Assembly: GCF_036946495.1 (NCBI RefSeq)
Contig: NZ_JAQIIX010000001.1
Coordinates: forward strand, 878,697-942,696
Direction of reading: 5' to 3'
Source of the DNA: Mycolicibacterium neoaurum
GTDB taxonomy: Bacteria; Actinomycetota; Actinomycetes; Mycobacteriales; Mycobacteriaceae
DNA length: 64,000 bases
A program made the translations under genes and the position numbers. The notes under the pieces are model-generated. The model was not told the origin of the DNA and did not search any database. It was given only the letters and a program-made list of their open reading frames with translations. This document shows, in pieces, positions 410-36,389 of this stretch (its first letter is position 1; the number at the start of each line of letters is the position of its first letter).

Positions 410-480
410 AGCTCCAGATTAAGCGCGGGTACCGACAAGTTCATTCCCCGCGGGCAGCCCGGCCGCGCTACCGTGACGCG

Positions 481-10006: not shown

Positions 10007-10046
10007 GCACCCAACTCTAGGCACCCGCTCCGACAGTCTCGCACCG

Positions 10047-20800: not shown

Positions 20801-20877
20801 GCCCTCGTATCCCAACTGGCAGAGGAAACGGATTCAAAACCCGTGCAGTGTGAGTTCGAATCTCACCGAGGGCACCA
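20801..20877 (+). tRNA. tRNA gene with encoded CCA; my cloverleaf reads anticodon CAA (Leu) but on a class I, short-variable-loop body
   Basis: Acceptor stem GCCCTCG/CGAGGGC, D-loop AACTGGCAG, T-arm GTGAG-TTCGAAT-CTCAC, discriminator A and CCA. The anticodon arm is ACGGA-TTCAAAA-CCCGT, with one A.C mismatch closing the loop. The last 25 nt are the attachment core of the integrated element. Confidence 0.8.
20853..20877 (+). repeat. attL core (3' end of the tRNA)
   Basis: Identical 25-mer to 36365-36389. Confidence 0.9.
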
Positions 20878-20922: not shown

Positions 20923-22038
20923 TCAACCCGCTGGATTCGCGGCTTTTGCCCACAATTTGCCCACACTCGCATCAAGGCGGTCGGCCACGCCAGCGAGGTC
21001 GTCATCGAACAAATCGGCGTAAACGTCCAGCGTCATCGCCGCTGACGCGTGCCCCAGCATCCGCTGAACCACCTTCACGTTGGCGCCCGACGAGATCGCC
21101 AACGACGCCGCGGTGTGTCGCAGTGCGTGCGCTGTGACCCTCGGGAACTCGGGGTCGGCGGCCTGGCAGCGGCCGACAGCACCAGCAAGCCAGGAACGCA
21201 CCGATGACGGCGGGCCGAGGTATCCGCCGTCGCGTGCCGGCCAGATCAGCTCGTCACGCGCCTTGCCTGCGCACGTCACCGCCAGCTCGTCGACGACGAA
21301 ACCGGACAGCGCCACCGTGCGGTGATGCCCGGACTTCAGCGTGCCCACATGTGTCTTGCCGCCGACCGCGACAGCGTTCTGGTGCAGCACGATCCGCCGG
21401 CGCAGGAAGTCGATATCACCCACGGTGAGCGCAGCGGCCTCACCCCATCGGAGGCCAGCGGTACCCAAGAGGAGGATCAGTGATCCGTAGCGGCCGGACT
21501 CCGTCGCTAGCCGGTGCAGCTGCTCGACGTTCAGGTACAGGTTTCGGCGCTTGCCGCGTGCTGGGAGCTTCACACCGCGGGCCGGGTTGGCGGCCAGAAT
21601 GCGATCGCGGACCGCGTCGTCGAGGATCCGCGCGAGCACCGAGTAGACGGTGGCCACCATCGACGGGCTCAGCTTCTCGGTCAGCTCGGTGACCCACGCC
21701 TGCACGTCGGTGTAGCGGATGTCCGATACCCGCGCCTGGCGCCACCGCGGCTCGACGTGGACGCGCCACGCTGACTCGTAGGAGCGGTAGCCGCTGGGCT
21801 TCATGTGGCCTTGCTGCCGCTGCATCCAGGACGGGCCCAGCTCCCCTATCGTGACGCGGCCGAGGGTCGGTGCGATGTATTCGCCGCGCCGCTTGGACAC
21901 CTCAACCTCGGCCGCGAAGGCCTCCGCGTCGCGCTTTGTCTTGAAGCCGCGCCTATCCGTCTGACGTCGGTCGGGGGTTCGATACCTGACCCGCCATCTC
22001 CGACCTGACTTGGTTTCGTAGGGTTCAACCCTTGCCAT
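20923..22038 (-). CDS. tyrosine integrase (phage integrase family)
   Basis: 371 aa. The N-terminal arm-binding type sequence is MARVEPYETKSGRRWRVRYRTPDRRQTDRRGFKTKRDAEAF. The catalytic C-terminus is GLRWGEAAAL...HALRHTAASLAISSGANVKVVQRMLGHASAAMTLDVYADL. The gene ends 46 nt from the tRNA. Confidence 0.95.
   Translation of the reverse strand: MARVEPYETKSGRRWRVRYRTPDRRQTDRRGFKTKRDAEAFAAEVEVSKRRGEYIAPTLGRVTIGELGPSWMQRQQGHMKPSGYRSYESAWRVHVEPRWRQARVSDIRYTDVQAWVTELTEKLSPSMVATVYSVLARILDDAVRDRILAANPARGVKLPARGKRRNLYLNVEQLHRLATESGRYGSLILLLGTAGLRWGEAAALTVGDIDFLRRRIVLHQNAVAVGGKTHVGTLKSGHHRTVALSGFVVDELAVTCAGKARDELIWPARDGGYLGPPSSVRSWLAGAVGRCQAADPEFPRVTAHALRHTAASLAISSGANVKVVQRMLGHASAAMTLDVYADLFDDDLAGVADRLDASVGKLWAKAANPAG
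20947..20962 (+). repeat. 16-bp repeat TGCCCACAATTTGCCC (candidate integrase arm-type site, P' side)
   Basis: The identical 16-mer is at 36262-36277 in the same orientation. This copy lies 69 nt inside attL and the other 87 nt inside attR. Confidence 0.6.
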
Positions 22039-23174: not shown

Positions 23175-23720
23175 ATGACCATCATGACACACCCCGAAAA
23201 TGACGCCGTGTCTTGGCGCGATCTCGCTGATCGGCTTACCGAAACGCAGGTATTGGAGCTTGAGTGCTTCGAGAAGCAGGCCGGCGACACCAGCGCGGAC
23301 GCCGCGCAACGCGAGTGGCTCATTGGGGAGGCGCGAGACTACATCACCGAGAACGCGGTGATTGCCGAGCTGACTGCCCGTATCCAACCGCCCCGTGGTG
23401 CCAGCGCCATTTTCAGTTGGGACAGCGTCGATAAGGCATCCGGCCTCCGATACCGAGTGATCCAGTGGGCCGCACGTGAACTGGGCTATTGCAGCGTTGA
23501 TATCGACGGATATCAAGACGAGACGGGCGCTGTCGATGGTCCGCACCTTTCCGTGTACGGGCTTGACGGCACACAGATCAGTACACCCGACGCCGTCAAG
23601 TTGGCCGAAACGCTCATCGAGGCAGCCGCTGAACTGGAGCGGCTAAAACAGGCCGAATCGGCCGCGGTTTCCGGCGGCCTCAGCCTGGACGGGGCAGAGA
23701 AGAGCATCCCGCGCCAATGA
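23175..23720 (+). CDS. hypothetical protein (element early region)
   Basis: 181-aa ORF with coding-like GC3. An ATGA junction overlaps the next gene. Confidence 0.6.
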   Translation: MTIMTHPENDAVSWRDLADRLTETQVLELECFEKQAGDTSADAAQREWLIGEARDYITENAVIAELTARIQPPRGASAIFSWDSVDKASGLRYRVIQWAARELGYCSVDIDGYQDETGAVDGPHLSVYGLDGTQISTPDAVKLAETLIEAAAELERLKQAESAAVSGGLSLDGAEKSIPRQ

Positions 23721-24520
23721 GCCGAGGAATGCCTGCCGTGGGTGTCGGAGAACAGACGTCGGTACCTCTCGACGATGCCGCGGCTTTCAACCCGCGAGAG
23801 TTCCGGAGAAGCCTTCGGAACATCGGTCTGACCCCCGGCCAGTTCCGCGTAGCGGTGGAATTGTGCGAGTTCGCCGGGCCGGATAAGCCCGAGGTTTGGC
23901 CTTCGATACCGACTATCGCCGAGAACTGCGAGATGACCCAAAAAGGTGTTCAGGTCGCGTTGAAAGCGCTCACAAAAAGAGGCTTGATCGTGTGTATTCA
24001 CGCGAGCAAGGGTGGTCGCGGGCAAACAAATCGGTGGCGACTCATGGTGCCACAAACCCCGAACGCGGGTTCGGGGTTTGTGGACCAAAAACCCCGAACC
24101 CCAGTTCGGGGTTTGGCATCAGAAACCCCGAACACAGAAGCTCCTAAACCCCGAACACAGAGTCCCGAAACCCCGAACGGGGGTTCGGGGGAAGTAGTTA
24201 GAAGAAGTGAATTAGAAGAAGACCGCGCGCGGCGCCCGTCACCAGAGCTCGACAACCCAGCCGCATACGGACTGCGCCCGAGGCCCCAACAAGCCCCTCC
24301 CTGCAAACGATGCAAGAAGATCCGAGGCGAGGGATGGTGCTCGGATTGCAAGTCACACCGAGAAGCCTGTCAGCGAGATAGGGCCGCGGCCGGTGCCGCC
24401 AGATCGGCCGCGATCGCGGCCTGCACGCTGTGCAACGAATACGGGGAACTTCTCGGCCCAGACGGTCGCACCCCCGTGGATCCGATCGTCCAGCACCACA
24501 ATGCTGCGAGGTCGGCATGA
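23717..24520 (+). CDS. winged-helix DNA-binding protein with C-terminal Cys-rich region (putative replication initiator/organiser)
   Basis: The wHTH-like N-domain is FRVAVELCEFAG...PSIPTIAENCEMTQKGVQVALKALTKRGLIV. A low-complexity linker is encoded by the iteron array. The C-terminus has CKRC...CSDC...CTLC cysteines. Confidence 0.6.
   Translation: MSRGMPAVGVGEQTSVPLDDAAAFNPREFRRSLRNIGLTPGQFRVAVELCEFAGPDKPEVWPSIPTIAENCEMTQKGVQVALKALTKRGLIVCIHASKGGRGQTNRWRLMVPQTPNAGSGFVDQKPRTPVRGLASETPNTEAPKPRTQSPETPNGGSGEVVRRSELEEDRARRPSPELDNPAAYGLRPRPQQAPPCKRCKKIRGEGWCSDCKSHREACQRDRAAAGAARSAAIAACTLCNEYGELLGPDGRTPVDPIVQHHNAARSA
24050..24221. repeat. iteron/inverted-repeat array plus C-free AT-rich tract (putative origin of replication)
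   Basis: AAACCCCGAAC occurs in direct orientation at 24054, 24089, 24123, 24146 and 24168. Three copies pair with an inverted GTTCGGGG(TTT) across 4-nt spacers; the first has 15-bp arms (24050-24083). The array is followed by GAAGTAGTTAGAAGAAGTGAATTAGAAGAAG (24191-24221), about 30 percent GC by hand count and containing no C. Confidence 0.65.
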
Positions 24521-25459: not shown

Positions 25460-25782
25460 GTCGAATCGTCTCTGTGGACCGCTACGAGTGGCTGGAACGC
25501 GTTCTCGGGCACTGTGACCTGACCGCGACTCAAAAACTCGTCCTGATCGCGCTGTGGGCCTGCACGGACGATCTGGGTGCGAACGCGAGACCTGGAACGC
25601 AGGCGTTGGCCCGATTGTGCCGAGTCGGCAGCCGCGCGGTGGACGGCGCGCTGGCCGCTGGCCGGCGACTGGAGCTGCTCGAACAGACCTCCAGAGCGAA
25701 CCCTCGGCGGCGACAGATGGCGGAATACCGTCTGACACTTCCCATCCCACCGTCATCTGTACCGCGTTACAGCTGGTACTGA
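25456..25782 (+). CDS. winged-helix DNA-binding protein
   Basis: LTATQKLVLIALWACTDDLGANARPGTQALARLCRVGSRAVDGALAAGRRLELLEQ resembles the helix-turn-helix domain proteins common in actinophage early regions. Confidence 0.55.
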   Translation: MSRIVSVDRYEWLERVLGHCDLTATQKLVLIALWACTDDLGANARPGTQALARLCRVGSRAVDGALAAGRRLELLEQTSRANPRRRQMAEYRLTLPIPPSSVPRYSWY

Positions 25783-25886
25783 ACCAGAACAGGAGTGCAG
25801 GTAGACACCGGTCAACCCGAGCCGATGTGCAGACAGAACGCCTCAACCCGAACCCCCATGCAGGCAGAAGAGGGCAGACCCGAAAG

Positions 25887-26318
25887 ATGGCACGCACCAA
25901 AGAACCACCACCGCACGGGCACTCCAGGTATCAACAGCCCTGGAACTGCCGATGCGACCTGTGTAGGTCAGACGTAGCCGCAGCCGCCCGGGAACGGAGG
26001 AAACGGCGCCGCATGAATCCGACACCGCGGAAGCCGATGCGCACGATGCCTGTCGAGAAACTGAACGACCCGGTGCTCGCCGCACTGATATCTGCCACCC
26101 GGACACCAGCTCTGCCCGGAGCCCGATGCCGTGGCCGCGCCCACCTATTCGACGAACGACACCCCGACGAGAACACCGAGGTCGCCCGCCAGCGCCAGAC
26201 GCAAGCTCTGGGCCTGTGCAGTCGGTGCCCCGCACTCGACGCCTGCCGCGTGTGGCTGAACTCCCTACCCGCCAGCCAGCAGCCCAGCGGCGTCGTCGCA
26301 GGCCTACTGCGCGATTAA
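25887..26318 (+). CDS. WhiB-like Fe-S transcription factor with N-terminal CRC-x2-C extension
   Basis: ATG at 25887 in ORF 25554..26318. The Cys pattern is ARC...LCSRCPALDAC (C-xn-C-x2-C-x5-C) followed by SGVVAGLL, the WhiB-like turn. The N-terminus has YQQPWNCRCDLC. Confidence 0.7.
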   Translation: MARTKEPPPHGHSRYQQPWNCRCDLCRSDVAAAARERRKRRRMNPTPRKPMRTMPVEKLNDPVLAALISATRTPALPGARCRGRAHLFDERHPDENTEVARQRQTQALGLCSRCPALDACRVWLNSLPASQQPSGVVAGLLRD

Positions 26319-33885: not shown

Positions 33886-34386
33886 ATGGCGAAGGCTCAT
33901 AATCGCACGACCTACAACCAAGGTTGCCGCTGTGACGTGTGCGTACAGGCGAACTCCGACTACCGCAAGCAACGCCGCATGCAGAAGAACGGCGAAGTTG
34001 CTGAACGGAAACCGAAGCGGCTGGCCGTGGTCAAAAATGTGCAACCCGATGTGCACACAAAAGTGCACATTCCCGGCGAGCCCACACCGGACCCGCCAGA
34101 GCCCGGCGAATGGTCCGTCGAGGCCGAAGTCCGCGCCCAGCTGGCCGAGCTTTCCGCCACCACCACACGCCGCGGCGAAGTTGCTGCAGCGATCGCGATG
34201 GCCCGCCTCCTGGACAACCCACGCGCGATCGCGCAGCACCCCGCCGCCACAGGCCGCCTTGTCGAGATCATCGAACGTCTACGTAAGGGCTCCGATCGGA
34301 AAACCGGCAAGCTCGCAGCTGTTCGCAAGATGACCCGCGGCACGGACGGCGCACCTAACGTTGATGGCCATGGGCAAGCACAGTAG
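33886..34386 (+). CDS. basic protein with N-terminal Y-x2-G-CRC-x2-C motif (DNA-binding or possibly small-terminase-like)
   Basis: 166 aa. The N-terminus is MAKAHNRTTYNQGCRCDVCVQANSDYRKQRRMQKNG, and the C-terminal half is helical (LLDNPRAIAQHPAATGRLVEIIERLRK). Clustered GTTTGCT repeats precede the gene. Confidence 0.55.
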   Translation: MAKAHNRTTYNQGCRCDVCVQANSDYRKQRRMQKNGEVAERKPKRLAVVKNVQPDVHTKVHIPGEPTPDPPEPGEWSVEAEVRAQLAELSATTTRRGEVAAAIAMARLLDNPRAIAQHPAATGRLVEIIERLRKGSDRKTGKLAAVRKMTRGTDGAPNVDGHGQAQ

Positions 34387-34636
34387 ACGCCGGGCCGCGG
34401 CCGGCCTGGATCCGCTGGTGCCGCTCGCCGGCGGCGACCAGGCGTTCGAGCTCGTCGACGATGGCCCCGTGCTGGCCGGCACGCTGCGCCAGCTCGCCGG
34501 CAGAATCATCGACTGCAACGACTGGGCACACATCCGGCTGAACGCGCAGATCATGGACACCCCCGCGGCTCGCGCCCAGGTCCCCAACGCCGCCGCCACG
34601 CTGCGCCAGTACTTCGACCGCTACCACCCCGCATGA
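34364..34636 (+). CDS. hypothetical protein
   Basis: About 90 aa in a frame with strong GC3 bias. The antisense ORF 34355..34627 is Gly/Arg/Val-rich and looks like an artefact. The start is TTG at 34361, or ATG at 34364 or 34370. Confidence 0.5.
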   Translation: MAMGKHSRRRAAAGLDPLVPLAGGDQAFELVDDGPVLAGTLRQLAGRIIDCNDWAHIRLNAQIMDTPAARAQVPNAAATLRQYFDRYHPA

Positions 34637-34641
34637 TGCGT

Positions 34642-34830
34642 TCAGAAGCCCCGCTTGATCTGCCTTATCACCTGGGCCAGGTTGCCGTCTTCACGGTCGA
34701 GTTCCTCGATTGCGCGCGCAAGGCTTTCCATCCCCTCGGCTAGCGCAATCACCGCTGGGTCGCCTGACGATTGCATGGCCTGCCTGGCTTTCGCGCCCGC
34801 TTGACGGGCGTGGTTGGCCGTGTTGCTCAA
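34642..34830 (-). CDS. small helical protein, unknown (last gene of the reverse cargo operon)
   Basis: 62 aa, MSNTANHARQAGAKARQAMQSS...LARAIEELDREDGNLAQVIRQIKRGF. It lies 25 nt after the upstream gene, and local GC is lower. Confidence 0.5.
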   Translation of the reverse strand: MSNTANHARQAGAKARQAMQSSGDPAVIALAEGMESLARAIEELDREDGNLAQVIRQIKRGF

Positions 34831-34855
34831 CGTTTGATCTCCTTGATAATTAGAG

Positions 34856-35389
34856 TCAGTACTCGTCGCGAGGGATGTCTGTTAGCCGGCTCGGCACCGC
34901 TTCGACCACGCCGATGCCGTCATACTCAGGCTCGGGTCGCCTGACTCGGAACGGTGCGTGGTACGCCACGCGACGTAGGTCTTTCATGCCGCTATGCACC
35001 AATTGGACTGCAGTAGTGGCGTGCCGGCCTTCGTCTCGTTTGGCATGCATCGCGTCGCGATACATGATGACGTTGGCCATTCGTTGTTGGACTACGTTCG
35101 CCGCGCGGCGGACATCAGGATCAGGGTGCCCGTAAGCAAGCCAGTTGAGGTTCGGCTCGATCTCTTTCTGCAGCTTGTCCTGCAGCTCCATCGCTCGGTT
35201 CCAGCTCTCCTTCTGCTGCTCGTCGGTGAACTCGCGGTCGAACACGCTGGAGGCGAACAGTGTGACCTCCCTGAAGAGCTCCCGCATCCAGTACCGGTCA
35301 ATCTCCGCAACGACCCCAATCGTCCTCTCATGCAGCTGGCGAACAAACGCCCTGTATTCGCTGTCCAGGACGTCATCAATCTCGCTCAT
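34856..35389 (-). CDS. hypothetical protein, no recognisable family
   Basis: 177 aa, predicted mostly helical, with an ATG start. It begins 12 nt after the upstream gene's stop. Confidence 0.6.
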   Translation of the reverse strand: MSEIDDVLDSEYRAFVRQLHERTIGVVAEIDRYWMRELFREVTLFASSVFDREFTDEQQKESWNRAMELQDKLQKEIEPNLNWLAYGHPDPDVRRAANVVQQRMANVIMYRDAMHAKRDEGRHATTAVQLVHSGMKDLRRVAYHAPFRVRRPEPEYDGIGVVEAVPSRLTDIPRDEY

Positions 35390-35401
35390 ATCCCCTACCT
35401 T

Positions 35402-35887
35402 TCAACTACTGATGATGGTGCCCCCGGCACCACCGAGAGCGGTGATAGCCACCTGCGAGCCGAATCCACCGAGCCATAACGCAGCTCGTTTGAACTTGCT
35501 CCGCTCCTCTTCGTCTCGGTGCTCGTCTGCGCCAGCCGTTTCCAACGCGCACACGAGCCGGTCGAGGAGTGCCTCAGGGGTCGGCCATGCGCCTGCCACC
35601 CGAAGTGCGGCACCGGTCGGTGCACCGACGTACCAAAGCTCACCACTGGCAGCCGCCATCTTGCCCTTCTCATCGAGGTAGGGCTCGGCATAGAGTGCGC
35701 GCAACGCCCGTTGGACGTCGTTCTTGTCCATGCCGGTTCGCCGGTAAATGCTCCCAGCATCGATGCTGGTCTCGCCCGACTCGATGAAGATCTCCACGAC
35801 CGCTTTCAACACCGGCAGGTCGCGGCTCTCCCACGTCTCACGCATCATGCCTGCGACGCTACTGGCAGCCACCGACGTGCAAGCCAA
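35402..35887 (-). CDS. winged-helix-like protein with Gly-rich hydrophobic C-terminal tail
   Basis: The N-part (LPVLKAVVEIFIESGETSIDAGSIYRRTGMDKNDVQRALRALYAEPYL) looks wHTH-like. The C-terminus AALWLGGFGSQVAITALGGAGGTIISS looks like a membrane or glycine-zipper segment. The likelier start is the ATG pair at 35848/35845. Confidence 0.55.
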   Translation of the reverse strand: MACTSVAASSVAGMMRETWESRDLPVLKAVVEIFIESGETSIDAGSIYRRTGMDKNDVQRALRALYAEPYLDEKGKMAAASGELWYVGAPTGAALRVAGAWPTPEALLDRLVCALETAGADEHRDEEERSKFKRAALWLGGFGSQVAITALGGAGGTIISS

Positions 35888-35945
35888 ACCAACGGCGGTC
35901 TCACCCGATCGGCCGACATACTCATCATGCCGTCAGCCCATGTCG

Positions 35946-36356
35946 CTACAGTGGCAAGTCAGTCAGCGCAGTCCCGCGCTCGCCCCCGAGGTGATCGGTC
36001 CACGTGATCTCGATCCTGGGCGGGTTTGACCGTGCGCCCATGGCCACTTTGAACGGCGCAGCCACGTAGTCGCCTTGCTGCATTTCAGCCCGCTTTGCGG
36101 ACCAGTCACGACGGGCGATGGTCCCGCCGACCGCCGCGCCCTTCAGACGCATCTCTACGCGGGTAACCGCATGCCCGGTGTTGTTCGCGATGACCAGCAG
36201 AGATCCGCGATCTCGCCGCACTGTCCACTCGTCCACTTGGTGTAACCTTCCTGACCACAATATGCCCACAATTTGCCCGCAGTTACAGATATCTGACGGT
36301 ATGTCTGAATACCTAAAGTTGCTGGTGAAAGACCGTGCATCCCGCTGAACTGGCAC
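35946..36356 (-). CDS. hypothetical protein (first gene of the reverse cargo operon)
   Basis: 136-aa ORF whose C-terminal about 100 aa look beta-rich. The 5' end overlaps the arm-type repeat and the tRNA-like remnant, so the real start may be GTG at 36268. Confidence 0.45.
   Translation of the reverse strand: MPVQRDARSFTSNFRYSDIPSDICNCGQIVGILWSGRLHQVDEWTVRRDRGSLLVIANNTGHAVTRVEMRLKGAAVGGTIARRDWSAKRAEMQQGDYVAAPFKVAMGARSNPPRIEITWTDHLGGERGTALTDLPL
36262..36277 (+). repeat. 16-bp repeat TGCCCACAATTTGCCC (candidate integrase arm-type site, P side)
   Basis: Identical to 20947-20962. It is preceded by a related ACCACAAT. Confidence 0.6.
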
Positions 36357-36364
36357 GAAAAAAC

Positions 36365-36389
36365 AGTTCGAATCTCACCGAGGGCACCA
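36365..36389 (+). repeat. attR core (duplicated tRNA 3' end)
   Basis: Identical 25-mer to 20853-20877. Confidence 0.9.

Follow-up and report, generated by a model that had tools for sequence, protein, structure and literature searches.

Four small genes at the attR end of a tRNA-Leu element in Mycolicibacterium neoaurum: a probable mosaic of cargo genes with a predicted PafBC-type promoter

In the window analysed here, the whole stretch of 64,000 nucleotides (nt) from position 878,697 to 942,696 of Mycolicibacterium neoaurum contig NZ_JAQIIX010000001.1, a mobile element of 15.5 kb is inserted at a leucine transfer RNA gene, tRNA-Leu(CAA). Next to its right attachment site (attR), it carries four small genes on the minus strand, designated A to D from attR inwards (34642-36356). 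The locus raises two questions, namely whether these four genes act together as one dedicated system, and under which conditions they are expressed. A sequence-only reading of this DNA had proposed a four-gene operon, expressed in the lysogenic state, as a candidate defence or exclusion system. The comparisons described below give a different answer to both questions: judged from sequence, the region is a mosaic of separately travelling cargo genes with no dedicated four-gene machine, and gene B is preceded by a promoter of the type predicted to respond to DNA damage through the activator PafBC.

The first question may be approached through the company that each gene keeps in other genomes. 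A scan of one genome per species yielded 59 loci with B, in Mycobacterium, Mycolicibacterium, Gordonia, Tsukamurella, Williamsia, Micromonospora, Microbispora, Nocardiopsis, Nonomuraea, Modestobacter and others; A, C and D are absent from all 59 by tblastn. The C family, with 16 clusters, is confined to mycobacteria, and B is absent from all 11 contexts of C that were read outside the window. The set of four is thus repeated neither in the 59 loci of B, nor in the 11 contexts of C, nor in the one context of A. The sequence-only reading had itself named lack of conservation as a unit as a result that would speak against a system, and its proposal therefore fails on this point.

The closest relative of the element's right end (locus L065; comparison loci are denoted by L numbers) shows what may take the place of the missing partners. 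The last two plus-strand genes have homologues there (70-75% amino acid identity), which converge on a cargo of three genes, X-B-Y (2583-4046 in L065), in which B is 76% identical to the B of the window. X is a gene of 119 amino acids with a probable leaderless start at GTG 2611, and Y encodes 205 amino acids with a hydrophobic N-terminal segment. Profile comparison shows no relationship between the 205-amino-acid protein and C, or between a 129-amino-acid protein of L065 and A. Since L065 keeps B and swaps its partners, it appears that the slot is a variable cargo site of which B is the recurring resident. A 'system' does not follow from tight spacing beside attR; in this case the closely spaced genes appear to be a mosaic of independent cassettes.

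The second question concerns expression. A search for palindromes upstream of B found no conserved operator, and it was in this search that the PafBC motif surfaced. When the 200 nt upstream of B homologues are aligned, they share TGTCGG-N10-(C/G)ATACT, followed after 6-7 nt by the start codon. The PafBC motif, tGTCgg(N10)tA(N3)T, combines a PafBC-specific -26 element with a SigA -10 element and lacks a -35 element, and the GTC triplet of its -26 element is strictly conserved across Actinobacteria (PMC8635444). Once activated by single-stranded DNA (ssDNA), PafBC lets the housekeeping holoenzyme use promoters of this kind, a process called 'sigma adaptation' (PMC8635444; PMC6789036). The copy in the window (35856-35876, minus strand) reads cGTCGG-TGGCTGCCAG-TAGCGT-CGCAGGC-ATG. 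Its -26 element (35872-35876) lies within cGTCGG at 35872-35877 and holds the GTC triplet. A spacer of 10 nt leads to a SigA-type -10 element (35856-35861), in the arrangement GTCGG-TGGCTGCCAG-TAGCGT, and the -10 element ends 7 nt before ATG 35848.

This placement is far from random. The pattern GTCRG-N10-nAnnnT is present in 24 of 57 upstream regions of B, with 22 of these 24 copies ending 6-7 nt ahead of the start, against a chance expectation of about 0.003 per region derived from the background rate of the pattern. Several of the remaining upstream regions contain variants that differ by one base or by one position in spacing. In L065 the promoter is nearly identical (TGTCGG-TGCCCATCAG-TAGCGT, 7 nt, GTG) and is situated before X, ahead of the whole X-B-Y cargo. 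In a scan of the whole window, the motif has 26 loose matches, only three of which lie 6-7 nt before a start codon: those of polA, of a uvrB-like helicase gene, and of B. The placements at polA and the uvrB-like gene serve as an internal positive control for the motif as a mark of DNA-damage genes in this genome. As a prediction, the link of B to PafBC is specific and statistically strong. Gene B is probably induced by DNA damage and not expressed constantly, and the constitutive, lysogenic expression assumed in the sequence-only reading gives way, for B-C-D, to a prediction of damage-induced expression.

The two control promoters deserve a brief description of their own. The polA motif (10014-10034, minus strand) lies 7 nt before GTG 10006, so placed that the predicted polA start is 18 nt downstream of the start of the longest open reading frame (ORF); the motif of the uvrB-like gene (416-436, minus strand) lies 6 nt before ATG 409. 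Leaderless, damage-induced transcripts are predicted for both.

Genes C and D may be included in the transcription unit of B. The gaps of 12 and 25 nt, the Shine-Dalgarno sequences before C and D, and the lack of a predicted terminator together point to one transcription unit, B-C-D; a simple scan of the minus strand for sigma-70 promoters and terminators gave nothing useful and predicted no terminator. Homologues of C elsewhere are all leaderless, with a -10 element TAnnGT and then 8 nt before ATG. The full PafBC motif is present in one, a stand-alone gene in L002, and part of it in two others. Unlike these leaderless homologues, C in the window (34856-35389, minus strand, 177 amino acids) has a Shine-Dalgarno sequence, AGGTAGGGGA, and begins 12 nt past the stop codon of B, which suggests that it was recruited into the transcription unit of B. 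Gene D (34642-34830, minus strand, 62 amino acids) begins with TTG and has an excellent ribosome-binding site, AAGGAG, 8 nt upstream. Co-transcription of C and D with B is predicted from this arrangement, and dependence on PafBC in vivo from the motif. Gene A, in contrast, stands apart as an orphan preceded by an upstream region of its own.

The start codons of the first two genes differ from those of the mechanically listed ORFs. The ORF of A runs on to 36356, but public annotation and both known homologues start at GTG 36236, which has GGAAGG 9 nt upstream, and the 5' extension of the ORF is occupied by TGCCCACAATTTGCCCACA repeats. Gene A is therefore almost certainly shorter than its ORF (35946-36236, minus strand) and encodes a basic protein of 96 amino acids with an isoelectric point (pI) of 10. 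Gene B starts at ATG 35848, matching every homologue, within an ORF of 35402-35887, and so spans 35402-35848 on the minus strand; its product is an acidic protein of 148 amino acids.

Most of what the sequence-only reading had described of the layout agrees with the ORF listing and with the element's boundaries. The minus-strand ORFs A to D occupy 35946-36356, 35402-35887, 34856-35389 and 34642-34830, and are separated by 58, 12 and 25 nt. The stop of D (34642) and that of the convergent last plus-strand gene (34361-34636) are separated by 5 nt, and the ORFs abut attR. Apart from these four, the integrase gene and the HTH_3 gene, the clearly coding genes of the element are on the plus strand. 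The region thus stands as an att-proximal, reverse-oriented and compositionally deviant accessory part of a mobile element. Its lower GC content is real, at 0.609 for 34642-36356 compared with 0.655 in the element and 0.665 and 0.671 in the flanks (the 3rd percentile among windows of the same size), whereas the '48-58%' given earlier was overstated: single 60-nt lines of the region range from 0.43 to 0.73, with a mean of 0.61. The GC content at third codon positions (GC3) exceeds that at first and second positions in all four ORFs, as coding sequence should here.

Protein B appears to be the core of the region, and its description as a winged helix with a glycine-rich hydrophobic tail is borne out by structure prediction. 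The AlphaFold2 model, built with 37 homologues, has a mean predicted local distance difference test score (pLDDT) of 83.6, and consists of a helix, one winged helix-turn-helix (HTH) and two further helices, the winged helix occupying residues 1 to about 110 and the last 13 residues being of low confidence. Its best Foldseek matches are of the MarR type (MepR, PefR and ZitR; probability 0.99, E ~1e-2, template modelling (TM) score 0.36-0.40), and the model has the winged HTH with flanking helices that is typical of that fold. The MarR models of Pfam (PF01047/PF12802) do not match the B of the window, and only 3 of 28 relatives match MarR_2, weakly, with 0.0036 as the best value. According to the model, B has a MarR-like fold, yet it is no member of the MarR family by sequence. 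Foldseek against BFVD returned generic winged-helix matches only, and sequence-profile searches of the PDB with B and C returned nothing meaningful.

In the mycobacterial subfamily, the C-terminal 25 residues of B (AALWLGGxxSQVAIxALGGAGGxxxS) are among the best conserved, and in relatives at 30-40% identity the tail stays hydrophobic and rich in small residues; its composition is 29% glycine and 18% alanine. A word-indexed search gave 217 clusters of B at 90% identity. At 50% identity, a full profile search gave 1,324 clusters, of which 589 had E<=1e-10; almost all are of about 145 amino acids and share one architecture. As far as sequence can tell, B is a member of a large uncharacterised actinobacterial family. 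After B, on the same strand, several loci carry a paralogue of 79-117 amino acids that contains the winged helix only and no tail (L004 3411-3764, L008 10461-10727, L013 10444-10713, L021 10498-10737), and a conserved acidic protein is often next in line. The tail-less paralogue may be a partner or an antagonist of B.

The genomic settings of B are varied. It is often a stand-alone cassette flanked by genes of the opposite strand. In six loci, all in small elements, it is the last gene, following the large terminase; the recombinase of these six elements we take, by eye, to be a serine recombinase. Elsewhere B adjoins Mrr (3 loci), type I restriction-modification (R-M) genes (4), an AAA_16 ATPase gene (4) or, in M. 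canettii, a type ISP enzyme. A tRNA gene lies within 2.5 kb of B in 12 of 47 loci, compared with about 2 expected when 50 tRNAs per 6 Mb are assumed (binomial p ~8e-7), and B is also found on 5 proviral contigs of IMG/VR. A role as excisionase was considered and rejected: B is too long, it occurs with both serine and tyrosine recombinases, and it is also found outside elements.

Gene C typically ends a forward operon in small capsid-bearing elements (L068, L071/72) or follows the tape measure gene (L001 and probably L078). Other copies are situated in islands that also contain genes of the TIR/SEFIR, SIR2 or type I R-M kind, and genes for SIR2, TIR or type I R-M are near C in three contexts. 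The homologue beside a type I R-M cluster is split over two frames (L069 8001-8530, L070 3833-4362), and is probably a frameshifted pseudogene.

No known family was recognised for any of the four proteins in the sequence-only reading, and scans of Pfam, PHROGs, PADLOC and NCBIfam likewise gave no significant match; in PADLOC-DB v2 no family matches A, B, C or D at E<0.05. By blastn and tblastn, the region, B and C are unmatched in 50,697 phage records, and B is unmatched in 72,556 plasmids. An IMG/VR scan found no C, metagenome scans found neither C nor D, and an exact-sequence look-up of C gave no match. Protein C is modelled as a four-helix bundle (pLDDT 72), in agreement with its earlier description as helical, and has a conserved, disordered tail (YHAPFRVxRPEPEYDG); its Foldseek matches are generic four-helix bundles only, at E 0.13 or worse. 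Gene A is nearly an orphan, with two known homologues (3 clusters), one of which stands alone beside an HNH gene in L064. No relatives of D were found. The sequence-only reading had suggested a beta-rich A and a helical D. The small gene beside C in L066 was considered as a homologue of D and rejected, as it encodes an unrelated protein of 62 amino acids, which we take, by eye only, to be HicB-like. For a type II toxin-antitoxin, there are neither domain matches nor a conserved B-C, C-D or A-B pairing.

Proteins annotated in a metagenome-assembled genome of M. neoaurum match exactly and identify the source organism. The element that carries the four genes is bounded by a 25-bp exact direct repeat, AGTTCGAATCTCACCGAGGGCACCA. 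Its left copy (attL, 20853-20877) is the 3' end of tRNA-Leu(CAA) (20801-20877), the sole match in an Rfam scan, and the attR core (36365-36389, without strand) is an exact copy of that 3' end. By Pfam, the minus strand has genes for a tyrosine integrase and for an HTH_3 protein. Genes for an S78 prohead protease and for the major capsid protein are also present, and on the plus strand lie an HTH_36 gene, an ORF resembling replication initiators and one that is HNH/WhiB-like. A protein of 1147 amino acids matches a tape-measure profile (PHROG, 5e-233). The capsid protein shares 62% identity with its counterparts in M. abscessus prophages and about 51% with the capsids of Gordonia phages. In the profile scans of the element, terminase, portal and tail proteins other than the tape measure were not recognised; several ORFs are without assignment.

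Mycobacterial candidates for phage-inducible chromosomal islands (PICIs) are small tRNA-integrated elements with integrase and capsid genes, a class that includes phiRv1 and phiRv2 (PMC10654092; PMC10085698). With its length of 15.5 kb, its att repeat in tRNA-Leu and its Phage_integrase and Phage_capsid domains, the element has the features of the operational definition of a candidate PICI (PMC10654092). By this analogy it may be regarded as a PICI/phiRv-like satellite, which would depend on a helper phage for packaging and transfer. The retention of a tape measure by a satellite-like element is unusual. In M. senegalense, a relative (L001) combines an integrase gene and an HNH gene with a tape measure of 1616 amino acids, and lacks a capsid gene.

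Several repeats and ORFs of the element may be recorded here. Two overlapping copies of TGCCCACAATTTGCCCACA (36252-36281, without strand) lie on the attR side and a third (20947-20965) beside the integrase gene, so that either end of the element has the repeat close by on its inner side; the copies are candidate arm-type sites of the integrase. The attR-side copies overlap the probable promoter region of gene A. In L015 the unit occurs as AAATTGTGGGCA, in an inverted repeat about 160 nt upstream of B. After the HTH_36 domain, a low-GC patch at 24050-24194 contains three copies of a 31-nt palindromic repeat, CCACAAACCCCGAACGCGGGTTCGGGGTTTG, and two AAACCCCGAACACAGA units, and looks like an iteron or origin region. 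These repeats put in doubt that the ORF at 23717-24520 is one single gene. The ORF at 25554-26318 has weak profile matches to HNH endonucleases and to WhiB-like proteins, and its WhiB-like C-terminal part is common to the small C-carrying elements L001, L068 and L071 (43-57% identity).

With moderate confidence, the region is read as a cargo module, induced by DNA damage or ssDNA, at the attR end of a satellite-like element. In the mechanism proposed, DNA damage, or replicating or induced phage DNA, would give rise to ssDNA, and this in turn would activate the host's PafBC. PafBC would then adapt the SigA RNA polymerase to the -26/-10 promoter of B, and transcription beginning at the A of B's ATG would produce a leaderless B-C-D mRNA. 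The resulting burst of B, C and D would be timed with the induction of resident helper prophages. The winged helix of B would bind nucleic acid or a partner protein, its glycine- and alanine-rich C-terminal helix would self-associate or enter the membrane, and the outcome would be growth arrest or interference with phage. We infer that B is most likely a damage-triggered effector of one of these two kinds. A defence or exclusion role is possible, though PADLOC gives no match and only a minority of the loci of B lie beside restriction systems. In a passage of PMC12848934, PafBC is cited as influencing mycobacteriophage resistance.

It is a more tentative proposition, and on the whole a doubtful one, that the B family generally (at least 1,300 clusters of about 145 amino acids with a glycine-zipper-like tail) is a hitherto unrecognised class of one-protein effectors of mobile elements, triggered by damage or infection, wired to the PafBC ssDNA sensor and usually leaderless. 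When a helper prophage is induced or a phage attacks, these would oligomerise or insert in the membrane to cause cell arrest or phage interference, and satellites and islands would carry them at an att boundary with variable partners, such as C and D in the window and X and Y in L065.

Several observations weigh against the reading as a damage-induced effector module. The dependence on PafBC is read from a sequence motif; in the window its first base is C where the consensus has a weakly conserved T, the sequence TTGCAC, 15 nt upstream of the -10 element, is a possible, poor -35 element for constitutive SigA transcription, and divergent relatives in Modestobacter are without the motif. The Kyte-Doolittle hydropathy of B's tail is only moderate, at 1.2-1.3 over 17-19 residues (the 19-residue maximum is 1.17 for the B of the window and averages about 1.3 in the family). 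Values of at least 1.6 occur in just 2 of 37 and 4 of 28 members, and the tails of distant relatives contain charged residues. Membrane insertion is therefore a prediction, plausible only. The protein is acidic (pI 5.0), so that DNA binding is not assured. Restriction-type or AAA_16 genes are beside B in about 10 of 47 loci, a minority pattern. PADLOC matched 247 defence-model families among 150 neighbours within 3 kb of B compared with 73 among 150 neighbours at 5.5-10 kb, a suggestive excess that comes from a few R-M loci. Finally, several relatives of B are in ordinary chromosomal neighbourhoods, presumably, to judge by eye, those of dapB/thyA and cspA/msrB.

The same promoter and fold would also suit a regulator of the element itself. 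B would then be an anti-repressor, an activator or an excision helper under damage control, coupling the induction of satellites and islands to PafBC, with C and D as passengers. SOS-controlled anti-repressors at the ends of prophages, such as Tum of coliphage 186, are an analogue. The winged-helix fold, the conservation of the DNA-damage promoter together with B, and the recurrence of B at att or tRNA boundaries of elements with two unrelated types of recombinase are consistent with such a role, and the tail-less paralogue that follows B in some loci could supply a partner or antagonist. However, the identity of B is 50-76% between elements with unrelated repressors and integrases, and B is also present where no element gene can be recognised within 10 kb; both are unexpected for a partner-specific anti-repressor or directionality factor. 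A regulator would, moreover, leave the strongly conserved Gly-zipper-like tail with no obvious role, and B is acidic. This explanation is considered unlikely.

Similarly improbable is the view that B is a host-type accessory protein of the DNA-damage response (for example, a damage-induced inhibitor of division or growth, or a DNA binder associated with repair) that was picked up by elements, the rest being hitch-hiking or decaying genes with no role against or for phage. The PafBC regulon mainly serves repair (PMC8635444), some relatives of B are in conserved chromosomal contexts, one homologue of C is frameshifted, and A and D are near-orphans. In contrast to a core repair gene, however, B is patchy in Mycobacteriales and enriched at tRNA or island boundaries and in satellite-like elements. 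All four ORFs also keep the coding-type excess of GC3, and C and D have good ribosome-binding sites.

The proposal that A to D form one dedicated, lysogenically expressed defence, abortive-infection or exclusion system, with B as its DNA-binding and membrane part and the others as obligate partners, is highly improbable: the tight same-strand spacing, the att-proximal position, the lower GC content, B's combination of a winged helix with a hydrophobic Gly-rich tail, and the restriction, SIR2, TIR/SEFIR or AAA ATPase genes near some homologues of B and C are set against a lack of co-occurrence elsewhere, which refutes it as a conserved unit, a nearest relative with unrelated genes in place of A, C and D, a B that is frequently alone between opposite-strand genes, the lack of matches in PADLOC, Pfam, PHROG, NCBIfam and 50,697 phage records, and a promoter that predicts damage-induced instead of constitutive expression.

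If the reading as a damage-induced cargo module is true, mycobacterial satellites and genomic islands time the expression of their cargo by the ssDNA sensor of the host, and the PafBC regulon extends to horizontally moving genes. PafBC, and not LexA, is the main DNA-damage activator in Actinobacteria. The reading bears on how PICI-like elements of mycobacteria sense the induction of a helper phage, and a promoter of 21 bp with a protein of 148 amino acids would be an entry point to a large uncharacterised actinobacterial family.

Compared with known PafBC-dependent (RecA-NDp) promoters of the mycobacterial DNA-damage regulon, such as that of recA, the promoter of B has the same GTC-containing -26 element, 10-nt spacing and SigA-type -10 element directly before the coding start, a layout that is also seen in this genome at polA and the uvrB-like gene. 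It differs in being situated before satellite cargo and a large uncharacterised family instead of repair genes, with binding and induction predicted from sequence. A precedent for an accessory operon is Rv1955-Rv1957, the higBA-type operon of M. tuberculosis, which has a RecA-NDp promoter and is induced by mitomycin C (PMC2897130). Both loci place an HTH protein behind the same type of DNA-damage promoter; there is, however, no homology between them, and the genes described here have no toxin or antitoxin domains and no conserved gene pairing. With MarR regulators, B shares the topology of a helix, a winged HTH and C-terminal helices, but differs from them in its additional Gly/Ala-rich tail, its acidity, the absence of a Pfam MarR match and the weak E value and TM score of the structural matches.

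In the cluster N phages, Sbash (gp30/31) and CarolAnn, lysogenically expressed defence genes are carried on complete phages, and phage-specific defence has been demonstrated (PMC6426596, PMC6426606). Like such prophage-mediated modules of actinobacteriophages, which sometimes include membrane proteins, the region consists of small genes without family, situated by attachment or immunity functions and transcribed apart from the structural operon. It differs from them in having no sequence or profile similarity, no match in sequenced phages, and a predicted damage-induced expression. The region is outside every catalogued defence system, and by analogy it resembles the prophage defence 'morons' in position and independence. 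Candidate PICIs and phiRv1/phiRv2 with PEST cargo (PMC10654092, PMC10085698) are, like this element, small and tRNA-integrated, with integrase and capsid genes and accessory genes at an end; here, in contrast, the cargo is opposite the integrase end and is no ESX/WXG100 toxin system, and a full tape-measure gene is retained. Cargo of mobile elements is thus a known kind, and what appears to be new in this locus is the predicted wiring of such cargo to PafBC, with a large uncharacterised protein family at its core.

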